Shown: positions 40,104-48,207 of the stretch, in pieces
How the letters are laid out: every line of letters begins with the position of its first letter
Position numbering within the stretch: position 1 is the first letter of the stretch
DNA from: a bacterium
GTDB taxonomy: Bacteria; Patescibacteriota; Minisyncoccia; Phycocordibacterales; DATDWN01
Assembly (NCBI GenBank): GCA_037134875.1
Contig: JBAXLH010000004.1
Span: 1,233-65,232 of the forward strand
Reading direction: 5' to 3'
DNA: 64,000 nucleotides
Made by a program: the position numbers and the translations under genes
Notes under the pieces: generated by a model
Database searches by the model: none
What the model saw: only the letters and a program-made list of their open reading frames with translations
Told to the model about the DNA's origin: nothing

Positions 40104-40509
40104 ACTTATCCACAGTTATTTTTATTTTGTCCTTTACTTGTCTTTTATAAGATATACAATTACATCAGAGCCGAAATAAGATGTCCTTAAGAAACTTTAA
40201 AGACGGATCATTTCATTGTTCTTTGTTTGTATGTGTTGTACATTTTTTGGTCTTGGCCAGACCCCTATTTAAAGAGGACCTTCTGGGTTCTACGGAGATA
40301 AGGAATAAACGACTTCTCACTATCTACTATATTTTTTTGGAGTCACGTTATTATCACTTTCTTCATAAGAGCACTGGGACAATCCTTTTTTCCCCAACCG
40401 CTCAAACACTTGCTTAAACTTGCTTGTCGTTGGGCGGTTTTTTGCATACCAAAAAGCCCAAATTTGGCGATCTCCTAGTTGAGGATCTTATCCAAATTTG
40501 AGCTTTTTG

Positions 40510-41982
40510 CTATTTAACGTAGTGTTTTCCTCGTATTTTCTTTATTTCTTCCTCATCCGCCTCATCTTTCACCTCTTTTCCCTTCTCACCTAGTTCTTTC
40601 AATTCATTTTCCGGCATATGTATGAGTTCCACTGCTCTATTCTCCAGATATTCTTCAGTATTTTTCTTTGGATCTTCCAAGACTTCCTCGAGGAGTGCGT
40701 GCAGAGTCCAACCAATTCTTGGTCCAGGTGTTACATGTGTAACATCCATTATTTTTTTGCCATCTATTTTGAGCATTCCAACTGAAATCGGATCTCTCAG
40801 AGCCTCTTCTATCATCGAATGATATTTTCGCAGACGATACGGATCTTCTTTGGGTCTACCAGTGCCTATACGGTCGCATATGCGTACATTCATAAGATCC
40901 CATATATTTTCCCGTCCAACATTTACAATCATTCTACGGACCGCTGAGAGCGTAATTTGCTCGGTGTCAGAAAAGAACATATGCCACCGTGCCATTTTTG
41001 TAACTTTCTCAATAATTTTTGTCGGATATCGCAAATCATTTAGAATTTTCCGAGTCATACGTGAACCGACTACTTCGTGACCATAAAATGTCCATTGATT
41101 CTGCTCTTTTCCCCATCTGCGAGCTTCTGGTTTGGAAATATCGTGCAGTAAAGCCGTTAAACGGACTTCTAGAGGAAAATCACGATCGGCCCCAGCTTGC
41201 ACACTTCGGAGCAAATGTTCCCAAACATCGTATTTGTGAGCATGATTCTGGTCAATTCCTATTGTTTTTTCTAACTCCGGTAGTACATATTGCAAAATTC
41301 CAAGCTTTTTCATAAGCAAAAGTCCATCCATTGGTCTCGGAGACATAATCAGCTTTGTAAACTCATCACGGATTCTCTCTTTTGATATGTTTTGAAGCAA
41401 ATGCCCGTTCTCTGCTATTGATTTTTCTGTTTCAGGTGAAACTTCAAATCCAAGTTCTGCAAAAAATCTGACTGCTCGTAGGATGCGCAGGCCGTCTTCC
41501 TGAAATCTCTCTGTTGGATTCCCTACTGTACGAATAATTTTGTCCTTTATATCTTTTTGTCCATCATAAAAGTCAATTAGCTGATTTTTTGATACAGAGT
41601 ACGCTAGCGCATTCATTGTAAAATCTCGTCTCTGCAAATCGTCCTCAATTTTTTGACTGAAAACAACACTATCTGGATGTCGATTGTCAGAATACCCTGA
41701 TTCCATTCGGTATGGAGTCACTTCGACGACTTTGTAGAGCTCATTTTCTGTATTTTCGTCTACGACACCCACTGTACCAAATGTATTTTCATAAAATGTC
41801 TTGGGAAATATGGCTATAATCTGTTCTGGTGTGGCATTTGTGGTAACATCCCAGTCCTTTGGTTCCCTACCTAGTATGATGTCTCGTACACAACCACCAA
41901 CCAAAAAAGCCTCAAAACCTGCATTTTCAAGCATTTTTGTTACATATGAAACTTCTTTTGGTATTGAAAACTTTGTTTTCAT
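40510..41982 (-). CDS. cca: CCA-adding tRNA nucleotidyltransferase with HD domain
   Basis: N-terminal GGCVRD nucleotidyltransferase motif plus a C-terminal HD domain, 490 aa. Confidence 0.8.
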   Translation of the reverse strand: MKTKFSIPKEVSYVTKMLENAGFEAFLVGGCVRDIILGREPKDWDVTTNATPEQIIAIFPKTFYENTFGTVGVVDENTENELYKVVEVTPYRMESGYSDNRHPDSVVFSQKIEDDLQRRDFTMNALAYSVSKNQLIDFYDGQKDIKDKIIRTVGNPTERFQEDGLRILRAVRFFAELGFEVSPETEKSIAENGHLLQNISKERIRDEFTKLIMSPRPMDGLLLMKKLGILQYVLPELEKTIGIDQNHAHKYDVWEHLLRSVQAGADRDFPLEVRLTALLHDISKPEARRWGKEQNQWTFYGHEVVGSRMTRKILNDLRYPTKIIEKVTKMARWHMFFSDTEQITLSAVRRMIVNVGRENIWDLMNVRICDRIGTGRPKEDPYRLRKYHSMIEEALRDPISVGMLKIDGKKIMDVTHVTPGPRIGWTLHALLEEVLEDPKKNTEEYLENRAVELIHMPENELKELGEKGKEVKDEADEEEIKKIRGKHYVK

Positions 41983-42030
41983 AAATGAATAATAGCATTA
42001 ATTACAGATTTGTTGTATATTATACCCTAT

Positions 42031-42102
42031 GCGCCCGTAGCTCAATGGATAGAGTACCGGTCTTCGGAACCGTGGATGTGGGTTCGATTCCTGCCGGGCG
42101 CA
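42031..42102 (+). tRNA. tRNA-Arg (anticodon TCG)
   Basis: Cloverleaf: acceptor gcgcccg/cgggcgc, anticodon loop cuUCGga, T-loop ttcgatt. No encoded CCA. Confidence 0.7.
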
Positions 42103-42345
42103 CTAGGCTAAAAATCTCCCTGTTATGGGAGATTTTTTGCACTAGTGCGAGTCGGAGCGGGCACCAGTCGAGCACGACTGGTCGCGAGGTCAGGGTCCGA
42201 GGAAACTTTTGAGCGACAGCGAAAAAGTTATTCAGGACTCACATACTTTTTCAGCAGAAAAAGTGGCCGAGTCCTGAGGCAAAGGAAATTTCAATTCGAC
42301 GGAATTGAAATTATCCGACGTCACTAGCGCGACGTCACCAGAGGA
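42103..42345 (+). repeat. composite member of the element family abutting tRNA-Arg 3' end, copy G
   Basis: Contains the tRNA-linked 5' module cggagcgggcacc-[ccagtcgagcacgactgg]-tcgcgagg shared with copy H. Also core-like segments tttttcagcagaaaaagtggccg and ggaaatttcaattcgacggaattgaaattatccg. Confidence 0.5.
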
Positions 42346-42381
42346 TTCAAAAACAGCCTAACTTCAGCTTTTTTTCACTTG

Positions 42382-42452
42382 TGCGGGCGAGGAGAGTCGA
42401 ACTCCTACTATTTGATTGGCAACCAAATGTTCTACCGCTAAACTACGCCCGC
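42382..42452 (-). tRNA. tRNA-Gly (anticodon GCC)
   Basis: Reverse complement gcgggcgtagtttagcggtagaacatttggttGCCaatcaaatagtaggagttcgactctcctcgcccgca, 7-bp acceptor, T-loop ttcgact. Confidence 0.8.
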
Positions 42453-43114
42453 ATTAACTCATAAGACATCAAATCAATCCATTTCAAGACCTTAATTTTC
42501 AATGTCTTCTTGGAGATTATAATATTTCCGACTCCAAAAAGCAACCTCTTTGTCTTGTGTTTTCCTTGGATTACTTGAGTTTTATATAAATTATCCCTAG
42601 TTAAATCAAGCTTTTCTAACCACCAATTTTCGCATTTTTCTATATCAAGATCTGGGTAACATAACAGCCAAAAACGTATATTTTCTCTAGGAATATTACA
42701 ATATTTTCCCAAGAATTTTATAAATATTCCAAGAACAGAGTGATCAATATTCCCTATTCTCAGAGAGTTATTGTTATTTGACTTGTCCCCTTCTCCTACG
42801 TAGAGCATTAATGCTCCAATAAACATAGGGTCATTTTTGAATTTCTCAAACTGTACAGTTGCCTCCTCTTCTGCTAATTTATATTTTTCGGATAAATTCA
42901 GTCTCCTTTGTTTGTTCATTGAGATGATTTTTTTAGTCGAATTCTTTATATTTTCCTTGTTATTTTTCAAAGCAATTTTTTTTGACCATTCCTTATTTGA
43001 AAACCAATACGATAACATACTGGAGGATATTCCAGTTTCTCTGTTTATAAAGCCATAGCTTTTCCCAAGTTTTCTTAGTTCAATGGCTTTTTGTTTTAAC
43101 TCCTGTGATACCAT
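42443..43114 (-). CDS. hypothetical protein with N-terminal HTH; weak LAGLIDADG-like motif
   Basis: 223 aa. N-terminus ...KAIELRKLGKSYGFINRETGISSSMLSYWF is HTH-like. LYVGEGDKS is a weak, poorly aligned LAGLIDADG-like segment. The 3' end overlaps tRNA-Gly by about 10 nt. Confidence 0.3.
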   Translation of the reverse strand: MVSQELKQKAIELRKLGKSYGFINRETGISSSMLSYWFSNKEWSKKIALKNNKENIKNSTKKIISMNKQRRLNLSEKYKLAEEEATVQFEKFKNDPMFIGALMLYVGEGDKSNNNNSLRIGNIDHSVLGIFIKFLGKYCNIPRENIRFWLLCYPDLDIEKCENWWLEKLDLTRDNLYKTQVIQGKHKTKRLLFGVGNIIISKKTLKIKVLKWIDLMSYELMRA

Positions 43115-43350
43115 ATAAATAAATTATACAACAGTTCAATAATATACAGGTCTGTCTTTTTTACAAACTGTGGATAAGTCTGTGGACATGGGGATTAAAG
43201 ACAAGTCTTTGACTTGAGTCAAACTTTGGGACAGATCTGAGTCTGTTTCAAAAATACGGCTAAAAATATGAGTTTATAAAAAACAGACAGTCTTTTTTAT
43301 GTCTGTTTTTGAGAAAAACTGTAATTGTTTCACGTGAAAATATATTTTGT

Positions 43351-43403
43351 GTTCCACATGTAACTTTTTGGTTTGTAACGGTATAATTTGTTACATGTGG
43401 AAC
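43351..43403 (+). promoter_or_regulatory. 14-bp perfect inverted repeat operator overlapping the -10 box and start codon of yraN
   Basis: gttccacatgtaac (43351-43364) and gttacatgtggaac (43390-43403) flank tttttggtttgtaacggtataatttg. The TATAAT is at 43382-43387. Confidence 0.45.
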
Positions 43404-43823
43404 AAAAAGCACAAAGAACCAACTCAGAAACAAATAATTGGCAGAATTGGCGAGGATTGTGCGTGTGAATATTTAAAAAAGAAAGGTTTTGTAATTGTTG
43501 ATCGGAATTACCTCAAGAAGTGGGGAGAAATAGATATTGTGGCAAAAAAGGCCAAAAAGATACATTTTGTAGAAGTTAAAAGTGTTTCTCGGCCAATTTC
43601 CACCGAAAAGAGGGAAGTTACACGTGGAACAGGAGGAGAATATCGACCAGAGGACAATATGCATCCGTGGAAACTTCAAAGACTTGGCAGGGTTATTCAG
43701 TCATATTTGCTGGATAAAAATGTTTCAGATGAAACAGATTGGCAGTTTGATGTTGCAACTGTCTATATAGACAGTGAAAAAAGACTTTCTCGAGTTTTTC
43801 TTTTAGAAGACATTGTCTTATAG
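43395..43823 (+). CDS. yraN: YraN-family (UPF0102) endonuclease
   Basis: ...IGEDCACEYLKKKGFVIVDRNYLKKWGEIDIVAKK...HFVEVKS matches the YraN fold signature. Start set at the ATG inside the second repeat arm; the alternative ATG at 43347 lies upstream. Confidence 0.6.
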   Translation: MWNKKHKEPTQKQIIGRIGEDCACEYLKKKGFVIVDRNYLKKWGEIDIVAKKAKKIHFVEVKSVSRPISTEKREVTRGTGGEYRPEDNMHPWKLQRLGRVIQSYLLDKNVSDETDWQFDVATVYIDSEKRLSRVFLLEDIVL

Positions 43824-43848
43824 GGGATTGTGATATACTTTTTAAGGT

Positions 43849-44469
43849 ATGAGAGATTTTCTGAATTACTTTGGTCAACTCAGGATGTATTCGTTGGTTG
43901 ATCTTATATTATTACTTGTTGTTATTGGTACAGGTACGGAGCAACTCATTGGAGCTGTTGTTTTGCATATTGCATTTTTGGTTTTCCTCGAAAGTCGGCA
44001 TTCTCATTCGTATAGAAAACAAACGCCAGAATGGATATCCTACATCCTCGCGATTTTTGGTCTTGTGTTGTATGGGAAAATTGAAGGCTTCATATATTTG
44101 ATTTTCAGTTATTTGTACACAAAGAAAAACAAGGGTACTGCTTTTATGAGTCCGCTTGTGAGGGGTTTTCAGAACTTTTTTATAGTTGCTGGTATTATTG
44201 GATATCAGAATCCGATCACATATCTAGCCGGAGGATTGCTGTGTCTCAGAAATTTGGCAGGGGATTTGCGAGATACTGAAAAGGATAGGGGAGAGAATAT
44301 GAGGACGGTACCTGTTATTTTGGGAATACGGAAAAGTATCAAGCATATTCATCTTGTTGCTATGATTGCGACGTCGGTTGTTTGGTGGTCGCTCTCGTCA
44401 ATTTCTATTTACTGGCTTCTCTTGGTTATTTTGATTGAAGTTTCTACCTACTATCTGACACCGAGATAA
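43849..44469 (+). CDS. UbiA-family prenyltransferase-like membrane protein
   Basis: 206 aa polytopic protein with an Asp-rich motif NLAGDLRDTEKDRGEN. Confidence 0.4.
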   Translation: MRDFLNYFGQLRMYSLVDLILLLVVIGTGTEQLIGAVVLHIAFLVFLESRHSHSYRKQTPEWISYILAIFGLVLYGKIEGFIYLIFSYLYTKKNKGTAFMSPLVRGFQNFFIVAGIIGYQNPITYLAGGLLCLRNLAGDLRDTEKDRGENMRTVPVILGIRKSIKHIHLVAMIATSVVWWSLSSISIYWLLLVILIEVSTYYLTPR

Positions 44470-44519
44470 TTTGTGATTTTGATTTTTTGTGATAGACTGC
44501 GTATGTTAATTTAAGTTTA

Positions 44520-44590
44520 CGGGGTGTAGTATAGCGGTAGTATACCTGTTTTGGGAACAGGCGGCCCGAGTTCGATTCTCGGCACCCCGA
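44520..44590 (+). tRNA. tRNA-Pro (anticodon TGG)
   Basis: Acceptor cggggtg/caccccg, anticodon stem cctgt/acagg with loop ttTGGga, T-arm ccgag-ttcgatt-ctcgg. Confidence 0.75.
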
Positions 44591-44785
44591 CAATCAAAAA
44601 CGGAGTTTTTGTTCCGCCGAAAATCGAAAGCCGGAGCGGGTACCTAGTCAGCAGACTAGGTCGCGAGGCGGGGTCGCGGAAATTTCCGAGTGACGACGAG
44701 GAAATTATCCGTGACCGATTCTCGGCACCCCGACAATCAAAAACAAAGTCTCTGTTCCGTGACCAATTCTCGGCACTCCGATAAG
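44573..44785 (+). repeat. tRNA-Pro 3'-end direct repeats (att-like) bracketing element copy H
   Basis: The 29-mer cgattctcggcaccccgacaatcaaaaac occurs at 44573-44601 (tRNA 3' end) and identically at 44716-44744. A degenerate third copy ttccgtgaccaattctcggcactccgataag lies at 44755-44785. Confidence 0.8.
44602..44715 (+). repeat. element family copy H (tRNA-linked module: ccggagcgggtacc-[cctagtcagcagactagg]-tcgcgagg...gacgacgaggaaattatccg)
   Basis: Aligns with copy G after tRNA-Arg. It shows compensatory changes in the hairpin (ccagtcg/cgactgg in G versus cctagtc/gactagg in H). Confidence 0.55.
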
Positions 44786-44812
44786 ATTTTAATTATTTTC
44801 TAAATAAAAACA

Positions 44813-44884
44813 CGGGGCATGGTGTAACGGTAACATTCACGATTCGGGTTCGTGAGACTCTGAGTTCAAATCTCAGTGCCCCGA
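44813..44884 (+). tRNA. tRNA-Pro (anticodon CGG)
   Basis: Acceptor cggggca/tgccccg, anticodon stem cacga/tcgtg with loop ttCGGgt, T-arm ctgag-ttcaaat-ctcag. Confidence 0.75.
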
Positions 44885-45040
44885 CAAAAACCAACTATTT
44901 TTATAATATAAAAACACTTGACAAGTGTGGTATTTTTGTTATAGAATATTTCTGTCAGTATGGGAAACCTGCTGATCTTTTCCTGCCTTGCTTTCGGGCT
45001 TGGATGGGAAATGTAATTCCTCAAGAAGGAGGGACCAAAA

Positions 45041-45808
45041 ATGCAAACGGCATTTTGGATCCTCGGGATCATCTATTTCTTGATCGCAATTGTTTTTGCG
45101 GTCAAGAAGACCCGCGAAGTTTTCGTCGGGTCGGTCGAGTGGCCCCGCCGGTACTCCTGCCAATACTATAACAGGAGACAGTGGTGGAAGAAGCAGGTAG
45201 TACCCTGCCTGGGCCAACTGGCCCTGATAGGGGTCTGCTTCCTCTTCTGGGCAACCGTCGGGTTGCCCGCGTGGGTGGCGACCATACCGGTCCGCCGACG
45301 GCAGGCCTGCGAGGTTCAGCGGCGGCGGGAAGAGGATTTGGCCCGTAATAAGGCACGGGCTGAGCGGGTGGCGAAATGGCGGGCGGAGCACCCACCTGTG
45401 CTCTATTACAACAAGAACAACGGCGTTGTCCGTGTCGTCCGCAAGGGCGCCTACGACAACGCTGTTGTGGAGCGGGCTCGCCGGGTTCGCAATGGCGAAG
45501 AGCCGAAAGGTTGCTTCGTCTTCGCGGGTAATCCGGTCATCCTGTTTCTCCACACCTCGGCTGAGGTCAGGGTACCGGAGTGGTCGGCGGGGAAGCTGTC
45601 GGACTTCGACCGGCTCGTGGCAGGCGATTTTGGGCCTGTCGTCGTCGAACGACGGCGGGACATTCTCGTTACTTTCAGTTCGGGGGAGGCGGAACCTTGG
45701 ATGTGGGAACCCTATCGCCAGGGTTCCGACGAGAAGAGGAGGCTGGAGCAGGCGCTCCAGTACCTCCTTCACCAGGACGTTCCCCCCGACGTCCTCGCCG
45801 ACAACTAG
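45041..45808 (+). CDS. GC-rich (about 62% GC) hypothetical membrane protein, probable horizontally acquired cargo
   Basis: 255 aa with two predicted TM helices and an Arg-rich stretch. Composition is sharply different from the ~35% GC background. Directly 3' of tRNA-Pro(CGG), terminator at 45843-45868. Confidence 0.5.
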   Translation: MQTAFWILGIIYFLIAIVFAVKKTREVFVGSVEWPRRYSCQYYNRRQWWKKQVVPCLGQLALIGVCFLFWATVGLPAWVATIPVRRRQACEVQRRREEDLARNKARAERVAKWRAEHPPVLYYNKNNGVVRVVRKGAYDNAVVERARRVRNGEEPKGCFVFAGNPVILFLHTSAEVRVPEWSAGKLSDFDRLVAGDFGPVVVERRRDILVTFSSGEAEPWMWEPYRQGSDEKRRLEQALQYLLHQDVPPDVLADN

Positions 45809-46246: not shown

Positions 46247-47077
46247 ATGGAAGGACAAAAAGAATTTTTATTACCCGAGACGGTGGAAAAGGATGAATCG
46301 CTTGCGAGAAAATTGCAAAAAGATTTATTCAGAGCGTGTGAAAAAAGTAATTTTAATTTAGTTAGAATTCTCCGAGAAAAATTTGAAAGAGAATATCCAG
46401 ATCAGCTCGAGGGGGTTGAGGCTCTGTTTGGTTTTGTTGATTGTCTCAGAGATACAGACAAGTTGGACAGGGGAGAAGTGAAGCACAAGGACAGATCAAA
46501 GGTTTATGAAGAATTAACTCAGTATCAATTTCTCGTTAGTCATTTCATAAAAGAAAACTCGGAGGACAAAGAATTTCTCACTTTGTTTTGGAATGCGTTA
46601 CACAAAATATCAGCGCCTGGATATATACGAGAATTTAATATTTATAAACATGGAATACTGACACAGGTAGCAACGTTTAAAATTTTTGAAAAAATCGGTG
46701 AGAATCCAACAATGTCTCACCCAAAAGAAGATGCATTCAAATCAATCGATATGTGGGTTGGAGAAGATGCAGTGCAAATAAAAGGTGATGCGCGAGCTAC
46801 CAAACTCGAATTGGTTGAGGTAAAAAAAGAAGGTGTTGTGGGAGTACCTGGCATTATTATTGATAAAAATAATCAGAGCCGTTATTTCTCGAGTGAGATG
46901 TTCGGCAAAATCCAGAGATTTAAAGTAAAATTTGAAGAATACAAAAAATATTTGGGCAAGGAACATATCAAAGCCTACTTTTTGGTCATCCCGTTTTCAA
47001 TGATAGATCCAGTGACAGGAGAGCCCAGTGCCGAGCTTGTCGCAGAAGCCAAAAGTAAAATCGACCAAATGAATTAG
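46247..47077 (+). CDS. hypothetical protein
   Basis: 276 aa; no motif recognised. Confidence 0.4.
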   Translation: MEGQKEFLLPETVEKDESLARKLQKDLFRACEKSNFNLVRILREKFEREYPDQLEGVEALFGFVDCLRDTDKLDRGEVKHKDRSKVYEELTQYQFLVSHFIKENSEDKEFLTLFWNALHKISAPGYIREFNIYKHGILTQVATFKIFEKIGENPTMSHPKEDAFKSIDMWVGEDAVQIKGDARATKLELVEVKKEGVVGVPGIIIDKNNQSRYFSSEMFGKIQRFKVKFEEYKKYLGKEHIKAYFLVIPFSMIDPVTGEPSAELVAEAKSKIDQMN

Positions 47078-47126
47078 TCATATTTCTGGCTACATTTTTT
47101 GATTTTACAAAATAAAATAGGAAAAT

Positions 47127-47168
47127 CTGTCAAAAGTGCTTGACAGATTTTTCATAGTATGCTATCAT
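47127..47168 (+). promoter_or_regulatory. promoter with palindromic upstream motif TGTCAAAAGTGCTTGACA driving GC-rich RNA 1
   Basis: -35 TTGACA 47140-47145, 17-nt spacer, -10 TATCAT 47163-47168. The -35 is part of the inverted repeat tgtcaa-N6-ttgaca, which is also present at 58172-58186. Confidence 0.5.
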
Positions 47169-47175
47169 TATATCA

Positions 47176-47667
47176 GATAAGGTAGCTCAAGGACGGTGCC
47201 CCCGCCCGAGAGTTTAGCCCAAAAGGGCCTACCATCTACCGGATCCGCTTGGGGCGGTTCGGTTTTGTTCCAAGTCGCAGGACTTGGGACTAGGGGACAC
47301 TGATGTGCCAAGGGGTATGTCAGTGAAATGGCCGCCGGTCCGACCGGTCCTAGGAGAGGAGGATGGCGAAGTAGGGAAAGTACGGGTTTACCCCGGAAAA
47401 TCCGCCCGAAAAGCTTAGTTCGCCCTCGTGCGAACCACCTTCTCCCCGAAAACCTGTTGAGTTCCAAGGGACTTGATGGGTAGGGTGTAATGCGCACAAA
47501 CAGTGGCCACTGTTTGTCCGCGCGATCAGGGTCGGTTCGTCGTCAAGGCGGGCCAAAGGTCCTCTGGGGTTTCTCCCTAGAGCACGGCTTCAGAAGCCGT
47601 AGGTTCCGCTCCGCGGACCGACCCTGATCAACACAGAACGGACTCTTCGGAGGACCGTTCTTTTTCT
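47176..47667 (+). ncRNA. unclassified GC-rich structured RNA (~490 nt) with own promoter and intrinsic terminator
   Basis: About 58% GC in a 35% GC background with no convincing ORF. Long-range complementarity (gatcagggtcggt ... accgaccctgatc) and many local hairpins. Terminator gaacggactcttcggaggaccgttctttttc at 47635-47667. Confidence 0.45.
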
Positions 47668-47733
47668 TTATACATTTGCCAGATATGAAAATCCACCACA
47701 CGTGCGTGTGATGGGTTATTTTTTGTACTATTT

Positions 47734-48207
47734 TTACGCGAGGAAAATATCCACGCAATTTTTTTCAATAAATGTTGCCAGATCGCTCGACGATTTGCGA
47801 AGCTCGGAAATACGAGCGGTCGACCTTTCCCTGTTTATGTCAGTTGGTTGCAAATAAATCATAAAACCAGCAGTGGCGATGATTGGAATGAGTGACCATG
47901 TATCAATCGCTCTCGGCATACCCCCGTCTTTTCCGAGGCTCATATTATAGCGGGCGACTGCAATTGCCAGCTTGTTCAAAAATTGATCTTGTGCCAAGTT
48001 GACGGGTATCACGACCCATGGATATGGCTCGAGATTTTTTACATGACCGGCACAAGAACAGGCTGTTTTGTAGCCGATTTTCCAGAGAGTTTTGACGAGG
48101 ACCCTAATACCTTCCTCGACATAGTTAAAACCAATATATTCAAGATTTAGGTCTGGTTCGAGAGGGATAATCTCGTGGCCTTCAAAATCGAATTGCGAGT
48201 TGAACAT
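47734..48207 (-). CDS. hypothetical protein
   Basis: 157 aa, Cys pair CSCAGH; no family recognised. Confidence 0.35.
   Translation of the reverse strand: MFNSQFDFEGHEIIPLEPDLNLEYIGFNYVEEGIRVLVKTLWKIGYKTACSCAGHVKNLEPYPWVVIPVNLAQDQFLNKLAIAVARYNMSLGKDGGMPRAIDTWSLIPIIATAGFMIYLQPTDINRERSTARISELRKSSSDLATFIEKNCVDIFLA

Follow-up and report, generated by a model that had tools for sequence, protein, structure and literature searches.

A small structured element recurs behind tRNA genes of Parcubacteria, with a tandem array at tRNA-Pro(TGG) that may be a stack of two insertions

INTRODUCTION

Genomic islands and prophages whose tyrosine integrases act at the T-loop sublocation, together with cis-mobilizable elements (CIMEs), insert at the 3' part of a tRNA gene and restore the gene through identity that runs from the T-loop to its end. 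The displaced tail lies downstream, elements accrete in tandem at one site, and those without an integrase need mobilization in trans. T-loop-class tyrosine integrases reportedly leave direct repeats of the tRNA 3' end that start in the T-loop. Integron attC sites and the CTX attP hairpin (of the integrative mobile elements exploiting Xer, IMEX) present a duplex target in folded form. Here we compare with these systems a repeat array behind the tRNA-Pro(TGG) gene in 64,000 nt of a Parcubacteria contig (JBAXLH010000004.1; this whole stretch is called the window, and positions are window coordinates). The array encloses a 114-bp segment, element H.

We found that H belongs to a recurrent, non-coding, structured element that is tied to tRNA 3' ends and has a copy of the tRNA tail together with its mirror copy. 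The element turns over between close relatives and stacks in tandem. On balance, we read H and the two tail repeats downstream of it as two stacked units of an insertion element that is small (about 90-290 nt), non-coding and structured and that specifically occupies the 3' side of tRNA genes in Parcubacteria.

As at a tRNA attachment (att) site, direct repeats of the tRNA 3' part bracket an insert, the tRNA is intact, and identity ends at or just after the functional 3' end. An adjoining integrase was not found, either as an open reading frame (ORF) in the elements or beside the 256 tRNAs examined. The first-pass annotation of this stretch had taken the repeats for a classic integrase footprint. 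The repeats fit this, since they bracket an insert at the tRNA 3' end, start at C56 and end where the functional tRNA does; neither mirror copy nor core belongs to such a footprint. Unlike tRNA islands and CIMEs, the elements here measure 90-290 nt, have no ORF and no integrase found nearby, contain a reverse complement of the target and a three-way-junction core, use one core family at >20 tRNA types, and occupy about one-quarter of the tRNAs examined.

The order target repeat, inverse repeat, structured centre and target repeat mirrors the integron order core site, inverse core site, attC and core site. As in attC and CTX attP, structure is conserved over sequence, stems covary, and an extra-helical base is conserved (the bulged A of hairpin Pb). 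As in integrons and CTX, the newest unit would lie beside the fixed site, and the only recombinase in the window is Xer-type. Unlike in those systems, the target is a tRNA T-loop plus tail instead of attI or dif, and recombination through a single strand is something we infer. The arms are tRNA-specific and 10-24 nt long, compared to the 7-nt integron consensus. By inspection, they do not match the attC boxes RYYYAAC and GTTRRRY, as they are either tRNA-specific or, in a short class of the element, TTTTTGGAAC/GTTTCCAAAAA, where GTTTCCA misfits GTTRRRY. No IntI integrase and no attI/Pc platform were found in the window.

RESULTS

Repeat layout at the tRNA-Pro(TGG) locus

The locus has the following features, all on the + strand. 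X denotes the tRNA sequence from C56 to the 3' end, and anti-X its reverse complement.

44520-44590, +: tRNA-Pro(TGG), intact, no CCA encoded, end at 44590/1 (ARAGORN; Rfam RF00005, 64.7 bits).
44573-44601, +: X1, which is C56 to A73 of tRNA-Pro(TGG) (18 nt) plus 11 nt of trailer; copy 1 of the 29-mer (exact match).
44595-44611, +: weak A/T trailer hairpin CAAAAAC-GGA-GTTTTTG, the 'pre' segment of unit 1 (sequence and fold; not called on the + strand by the terminator scan).
44616-44626, +: anti-T GCCGAAAATCG, the 5' strand of closing helix P1 (inverted repeat and fold).
44627-44715, +: family-A core of element H, a three-way junction (motif comparison and fold).
44716-44744, +: X2, copy 2 of the 29-mer (exact match).
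44745-44763, +: unit 2 remnant, AAAGTCTCTGT plus TCCGTGAC, with anti-T and core deleted (pairwise alignment).
44764-44781, +: X3, a degenerate tRNA-Pro tail CAATTCTCGGCACTCCGA, followed by an unrelated trailer TAAGATTTT (alignment and comparison with relatives).
44813-44885, +: tRNA-Pro(CGG) (ARAGORN and Rfam).

Landmarks of tRNA-Pro(TGG) are T54 at 44571, C56 at 44573 and the discriminator A at 44590. The 29-mer CGATTCTCGGCACCCCGACAATCAAAAAC has two exact occurrences, with starts 143 nt apart, compared to none expected in 100 shuffles, and 114 nt (44602-44715) lie between them. The identical repeat, the intervening element, the degenerate third copy and the second proline tRNA had all been noted in the first-pass annotation, and each is present. 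Similarity between copies 1 and 2 reaches 51 nt at 86% identity (44566-44616 versus 44709-44759). Over 44756-44784, the third copy matches copy 2 at 90% identity; its opening 8 nt TCCGTGAC (44756-44763) are the element 3' end, not tRNA, so that the tRNA-derived part is 44764-44781. X3 is probably the original 3' end of the tRNA-Pro gene; it resembles the resident allele and trailer of a relative (locus L017; CACTCCGAC AAGATG).

We define a unit as running from C56 of one copy through the base that precedes C56 of the next. The locus thus reads tRNA-Pro(TGG), unit 1 (element H; 143 nt, 44573-44715), unit 2 (48 nt, 44716-44763) and the X3 tail. Unit 2 aligns with both ends of unit 1 across a single 95-nt gap that has the tetramer TCCG at either side. 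Hence, unit 2 is an H-like unit stripped of its interior. X2 has a double role, as its first 11 nt form the 3' strand of P1 in unit 1 and it also opens unit 2.

Three other public assemblies (a metagenome-assembled genome at NCBI, a JGI contig and a Logan contig) are 100% identical over 650 nt of this region. Hence, the repeats are not an assembly artefact, which the first-pass annotation had named as the way in which it would fail. Three same-species public contigs that have the upstream UbiA-like gene (L003, L005 and L006) stop within tRNA-Pro(TGG), at window positions 44545-44556; such ends could be due to strain variation downstream or to shared tRNA sequence that breaks the assembly graph. 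Downstream of tRNA-Pro(CGG), we found neither an element nor an anti-T, and most relatives do not have this gene at the same position.

Structure of element H and its core

Besides the direct repeats, the locus has two features that the first-pass annotation missed: a reverse complement of the tRNA tail and a conserved, covarying core. The anti-T GCCGAAAATCG is the reverse complement (10/11) of CGATTCTCGGC, the 3' part of the T-loop plus the 3' strand of the T-stem, at the start of copy 2, with which it pairs to enclose an 89-nt G+C-rich core. This core has the junction AAA, helix P2 (GCC/GGC) with a GGA/GA internal loop, the hairpin CCTAGTC-AGCA-GACTAGG (44643-44660), the conserved GAGGCGGGGTCG (44665-44676), helix P3 with the hairpin GGAAATTTCC..GGAAATT-A-TCC (44678-44710, bulged A) and the 3' end GTGAC (44711-44715). 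The predicted minimum free energy of H is -59.1 kcal/mol, with z = -7.5 on the + strand and -5.6 on the - strand.

Compensatory changes occur in 14 of 23 predicted pairs among 23 family-A sequences (RNAalifold, independent of the covariance model used below). Noncanonical cells number 31 of the G.U type on the tRNA-sense strand and 12 of the A.C type; this excess favours the sense strand, as RNA or as single-stranded DNA, as the folded one. Unpaired motifs are conserved too, namely the loops GACG and AGCA, tandem G.A pairs and a bulged A.

No ORF was found inside the elements. Rfam 15 at the gathering threshold found only tRNAs in the window and 10 related loci. In E-value mode it also found only tRNAs over 41900-45100 and 47050-47760, with nothing over H at E <= 10. 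A terminator scan found no + strand terminator between tRNA-Pro(TGG), H and tRNA-Pro(CGG). Mapped by hand, the junction lengths and core nucleotides of the three-way junction misfit hammerhead, twister and hepatitis delta virus (HDV) ribozymes, and H does not fit the hammerhead core (CUGANGA / GAAA / UH).

The same layout behind other tRNAs

We analysed 80 loci of related Parcubacteria genomes, taken around the syntenic gene for the CCA-adding enzyme (L-numbers are locus labels); their gene order is tRNA-Arg, tRNA-Gly, tRNA-Pro, tRNA-Gly. The last 16 nt of the tRNA are repeated 90-290 nt downstream for 33 of 256 tRNAs and upstream, outside real tRNAs, for none. Similarly, the complement of a tRNA's own T54-N65 lies within 300 nt downstream in 44/255 cases with at most one mismatch and in 60/255 with at most two, compared to 0 and 6 upstream. 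Each of the four common tRNA types (Pro, Gly, Arg and Leu) is occupied at 20-27%.

In tRNA orientation, the shared layout is a reverse complement of the tRNA's own T-loop/T-stem, a conserved three-way-junction core and a tRNA copy from C56. The anti-T covaries with each tRNA's loop and stem (AATCGAA, ATTCGAA, ATTTGAA, ACTCGAA and AGTCGAA); it is often prolonged into an anti-acceptor segment and sometimes split by a hairpin at the T-stem/acceptor boundary. Many elements have a canonical bidirectional terminator between the tRNA and the element. Two core families occur. Family A, to which H belongs and which also has an Arg-linked variant, has the motifs GCCGGAG, GAGGCGGGGTCGC and GTGAC, directly followed by CGAYTC; family B has GAAAGACTTTTCC, GGAAAAGTACC and GTAGGGCGA. 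Tandem units are present in L039, L045 and L080 as well.

A metagenome scan with the family-A signature GAGGCGGGGTCG..GTGACCGA gave at least 119 matches, and we analysed 82. Of these, 47 sit 31-310 nt behind tRNAs of >20 specificities, and in about 32 of the 47 the 18-20 nt after GTGAC are that tRNA's C56-to-3'-end with zero mismatches. There were no matches in viral contigs; hence, we rejected carriage of the elements by phage. For the 256 tRNAs, we found no tRNA fragments at kilobase distance and no integrase beside the gene. Since no integrase, cargo or kilobase-scale island was found, and since the 90-290 nt size recurs, small size is native to the elements.

Some copies have further parts. 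In several family-A copies (L105, L113, L117, L136, L160 and L087), GTGAC is followed by a conserved CGAAAGYGTACYCRCGGTT that is not a tRNA tail and looks like the start of another element class, so that different classes would be nested or arrayed in tandem. The trailer module AAAATAAACGAG..GCGAAGC..CGACTATTATTTT, between tRNA and anti-T, recurs behind different tRNAs and in different genomes (L064, L070 and L079). Hairpins with the loop AACTGCTT (the complement of the core AGCAG loop) recur between anti-acceptor and anti-T segments. It is possible that 'trailer' parts of this kind move on their own as modules or act as kissing-loop partners.

Repeat boundaries

We determined where identity ends in 50 elements with a perfect copy from C56 to N73. 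For genes that encode CCA, identity runs exactly 3 nt (CCA) beyond the discriminator in 9/15 and never less than 3. For genes without an encoded CCA, it runs 1-2 nt beyond the discriminator in 18/35 (Fisher p = 0.0003 versus CCA-encoding genes). Hence, the shared block terminates at the functional tRNA 3' end, as it should if a working tRNA has to be completed by one of the copies. The end of identity follows the encoded CCA, and we therefore rejected a fixed-length target-site duplication.

Copies at genes without CCA continue with CTT, CCG, CTA or similar bases and share 1-5 nt of the gene's own trailer, and the anti-X of L044 complements DNA-encoded trailer. Since CCA is mostly absent where the gene does not encode it and trailer bases encoded in DNA are shared, we rejected a retroelement or tRNA-primer origin, which would use a mature tRNA tail. 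Loop positions 59-60 covary with the anti-T, and the conserved GAAAG that comes after it is not T-stem; hence, the anti-T is not a reversed tRNA fragment or the T-stem 5' strand.

Turnover among relatives

The loci L077 and L079 have flanks that are 91.5% identical, yet different elements behind the same tRNA-Arg. In L064 and L070 (89% identical), cores that are about 93% identical by eye lie behind tRNA-Gly(tcc) and tRNA-Arg, respectively, and in each the arms fit the locus's own tRNA. The outer tail and trailer of L064 are orthologous to the intact tRNA-Gly end of L070, and the working tRNA-Gly of L064 is a different allele. Because the whole tRNA allele was exchanged too, this pair cannot tell which copy came in. 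The tRNA-Pro gene is element-free in L008 and has another element behind it in L007, both among the closest relatives. Across the relatives, tRNA-Pro and tRNA-Gly are between 4 bp and 5 kb apart, and window-specific genes lie in this interval.

The tRNA genes themselves vary. Single tRNA genes (tRNA-Arg, tRNA-Gly and tRNA-Pro; L007-L086) flip orientation between relatives with gene order kept, and X/anti-X inverted repeats could be the substrate for such inversions. Two distinct alleles of tRNA-Gly(tcc), GCGGGATT...ATCCCGC and GCGGGCAT...TGCCCGC, are patchy among relatives (e.g. L064 7346-7417 and L070 7184-7255). They differ even between genomes with 89% identical flanks, which suggests frequent replacement of tRNA genes by recombination.

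Short-class copies and E42

Further members of the element in the window, together with its only recombinase gene, are as follows.

38118-39107: syntenic Xer-type recombinase gene, the only recombinase in the window, 5.4 kb from the repeats.
40008-40081, +: short-class copy with a homologous core, not tRNA-linked (covariance model R1).
437-510, 18654-18730, 20518-20592, 28661-28734 and 56096-56168, +: five other short-class copies (covariance model R1).
42139-42340, +: E42, a 200-nt compound family member behind tRNA-Arg(TCG) and its terminator.

The short-class copies in the window score 70-99 bits with model R1. The minimal family-A form (88 nt) and the short class have the same two hairpins, one with a GACG loop and one with an AGCA loop plus bulged A; hence, we consider them homologous. 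The model finds 33 copies in the window and loci. In the alignment, which is fitted to the model so that its counts lean toward structure, 94.9% of cells are paired and double-change cells number 175, compared to 54.5 in shuffles. In this model-fitted alignment, the covariation score is 0.68, compared to 0.08-0.14 with partners slid. E42 lies between the terminator of tRNA-Arg(TCG) and a convergent tRNA-Gly(GCC). In place of T-arm sequence, its arms GCACTAGTGCG and GTCACTAGCGCG contain the tRNA-Arg end plus trailer (CGCA|CTAG), once as a complement and once as a copy.

L077 (filled) and L079 (empty) form a clean pair: the arms are part of what is inserted, and there is no palindrome at the empty site. 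A second L079 copy has a core about 97% identical by eye, with arms that differ by compensated changes, including a compensated indel. L028 has an element with arms at the place where L029 has a different, ordinary terminator. Hence, we rejected insertion into pre-existing palindromes. A 4-bp CCRG duplication is possible in one pair only.

All 8 of 8 element copies in the window lie on the + strand whatever the orientation of the neighbouring gene (two-sided chance about 0.008); both orientations occur within single related loci, so we draw no conclusion on strand bias. A DnaA-box consensus TTATCCACA lies at 40107-40115, 3' of the gene for the CCA-adding enzyme. It is kept in the spacers of L007, L008 and L012, and the surrounding spacer is not.

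Neighbouring window-specific DNA

The first-pass annotation had taken an adjacent GC-rich cargo gene as support for integration. This ORF (45041-45808) encodes 255 aa, has 56% G+C and two predicted N-terminal membrane helices, and gave no Pfam or NCBIfam match. It is absent from 80/80 related loci. It lies outside the repeat-bounded stretch behind its own strong promoter-like site (11/12; 44918-44947). The ORF is window-specific but unlinked to the repeats and does not serve as support. A UbiA-like gene (43849-44469), a 276-aa ORF (46247-47077), a 157-aa ORF (47734-48207) and a C39-like ORF (49547-50086) are window-specific as well.

A stretch of about 470 nt (47180-47650) is G+C-rich in this 38% G+C genome, has no convincing ORF and lies within a window-specific insertion between RNHCP and protease genes. 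A TTGACA..TATCAT promoter-like site precedes it (47139-47170), a T-rich tail follows, and it contains a perfect 30-nt palindrome (47492-47521). A search of Rfam at E <= 1 gave nothing for this stretch, which is possibly a large structured RNA so far unannotated.

DISCUSSION

Insertion of a structured element

If the array is a stack of insertions, each unit would consist of X, a short trailer or terminator hairpin, anti-X and the three-way-junction core. The unit would recombine into the chromosome inside the block that it shares with the tRNA, leaving the gene intact and a second tRNA tail downstream of the insert. This downstream tail pairs with anti-X, and the long helix closes the core. 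A later insertion at the same tRNA would displace the older unit outward; in the window, unit 2 has since lost 95 nt. Joining would be by a site-specific recombinase acting in trans, with the X/anti-X hairpin presenting a duplex copy of the target as the folded integron attC or the CTX-phage attP hairpin does. Repeated integration at a tRNA hotspot, as the first-pass annotation had proposed, agrees with the two-unit stack. Its suggestion of mobilization in trans also fits, since the cargo is the small element only; of tyrosine recombinases, which it named, the window has only the Xer-type gene 5.4 kb away.

Several results weigh against insertion. No recombinase was linked to any element, the sole one in the window being the syntenic Xer-type gene. 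One core family occurs at >20 tRNA types with perfectly matched X and anti-X, and a carried att copy would fit so many types only with recombination between arms and cores or with their rewriting. Arms also change faster than cores: different arms flank cores that are nearly identical, in one case with a compensated indel in both arms, which hints that one arm is copied from the other, unlike in classic integrases. Short-class copies occupy sites away from tRNAs and have no direct repeat there. The downstream copy is limited to C56-N65 in about 10-15% of elements, for which the model needs secondary deletions. In L064, the entire tRNA, beyond its tail, departs from the ancestral allele. Finally, the empty-site alleles that the first-pass annotation had proposed to look for were not found in metagenome contigs for tRNA-Pro(TGG) itself (0 matches), and all long public contigs have the same array; among relatives, the comparison did give the element-free tRNA-Pro of L008 and the differing elements of L077 and L079.

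Alternative explanations

Instead of a mobile element, the array could be a resident structured non-coding RNA that is co-transcribed with the tRNA and whose closing helix mimics the acceptor/T-arm stack, which we consider possible and doubtful. Such an RNA would perhaps be excised by tRNA-processing enzymes, and its tail and mirror would stem from local duplication, e.g. inverted triplication by template switching at T-arm/terminator hairpins. The strong helix covariation, the 31 G.U-type versus 12 A.C-type cells that point to a folded sense strand, the conservation of unpaired motifs and the terminator-free run from tRNA-Pro(TGG) through H to tRNA-Pro(CGG) all agree with an RNA gene, as does the hairpin that in several elements splits anti-acceptor from anti-T exactly where the tRNA 5' strand is interrupted. 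X, anti-X and X also follow the order of an inverted triplication, for which origin-dependent inverted-repeat amplification (ODIRA) is modelled in PMC4689423. As in ODIRA and duplication-inversion-duplication (DUP-INV-DUP) products, the tRNA tail is direct, inverted and direct, with hairpins at both junctions. Unlike in those products, a conserved mobile core lies at the second junction every time, at many tRNAs and in many genomes, and template switching alone cannot put it there. A resident RNA also does not agree with the patchy occurrence (about 24% of tRNAs), with close relatives that have different elements at one tRNA, with one core that is shared by >20 tRNA types and by non-tRNA sites, for which there is a clean empty site, with the canonical bidirectional terminator that parts many elements from the tRNA, or with the absence of an Rfam family match. 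Rather unlikely, in our judgement, is a mobile or guide module at the RNA level, whose arms would read both strands of the tRNA gene and whose core would recruit, or be, the inserting catalyst. By analogy, this resembles IS110 bridge RNAs or dual-spacer guide RNAs, here as free-standing 90-nt units that would rewrite their arms for each tRNA. It would account for arms that match at >20 tRNA types, for different arms on near-identical cores, for compensated indels and for the G.U bias of the sense strand. Variable palindromic stems are shared with the stem-loop arrays of tandem interspaced guide RNAs (TIGR; PMC12045711); these are box C/D arrays beside a Tas gene, unlike here, so we rejected this identity (PMC12045711).

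Short, non-coding, multi-copy hairpins that often lie at gene ends and vary in presence also typify MITEs (miniature inverted-repeat transposable elements) as well as repetitive extragenic palindromic (REP) repeats (Correia, ERIC, RUP, REP/BIME and the PATEs of IS200/IS605). A hairpin-seeking transposon of this kind, which would enter the apex of existing DNA hairpins (terminators or the T-arm) and owe its arms to the target, is in our view highly unlikely. Agreeing with it, convergent genes flank 4/6 short-class copies and also E42, an arrangement in which one expects bidirectional terminators, and element-free perfect palindromic terminators occur in the window and at the L007 site orthologous to 40008-40081. 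However, the arms arrived with the insert at the palindrome-free empty site of L079, L029 has a different, ordinary terminator where L028 has element and arms, and the left arm truly complements T-loop 56-60 and covaries with it instead of being the T-stem 5' strand. Moreover, unlike in MITEs, the terminal arms vary and the centre is conserved, there is an association with tRNA 3' ends and tail copies, the terminal repeats are not those of a MITE, and we found no parent insertion sequence. Large integrase-borne islands or prophages at tRNA-Pro that lost nearly all their DNA, leaving only attL- and attR-proximal ends, are a still more improbable source, one that the data largely refute; the first-pass annotation had offered decay of larger integrated elements as its other option. 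The repeats do start in the T-loop, which is said to fit T-loop-class tyrosine integrases, and the tRNA-Pro to tRNA-Gly interval does vary from 4 bp to 5 kb with window-specific genes inside. However, random deletion would not yield 33 to 60 independent cases that all measure 90-290 nt with conserved architecture and motifs, integrase remnants and distant repeats were not found, and an inverse target copy is not a known need of attP arms. Least credible of all is a tandem tRNA-Pro duplication that decayed into pseudo-tRNA remnants, or else an assembly artefact. Second copies in L014 and L072 retain more of the tRNA, including variable loop and T-arm, and L074 has true tandem tRNA-Pro isoacceptors with a common tail and trailer. 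Against duplication, the copies across dozens of tRNAs begin at C56 and abut the core end GTGAC, which also lies upstream of X2 and X3, with no trace of the 5' two-thirds of the tRNA and no partial tRNA found by ARAGORN or Rfam; against an artefact, the locus is identical in four independent assemblies.

Implications

The element was not described in the literature that we searched (full text of a limited collection) and has no match in Rfam 15. It would be a kind of tRNA-targeting integrative DNA, with a modest chance of being a categorically different one. The tiny genomes of bacteria in the candidate phyla radiation (CPR) are considered poor in mobile DNA. Even so, about one-quarter of the sampled tRNA genes carry a 90-290-nt non-coding insert of one conserved architecture.

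These elements have practical consequences. The tRNA-tail repeats that they create will be misread as att sites by software that finds islands, and the elements break assemblies at tRNA genes. Their inverted repeats may drive the frequent inversions of tRNA genes and the allele swaps among relatives.

If a host recombinase acts on the folded hairpin, the principle of attC and CTX would extend to tRNA genes, and these would be the smallest known tRNA-integrating units. If instead the function is that of an RNA, the elements would be an abundant, unannotated class of structured RNA tied to tRNA operons.

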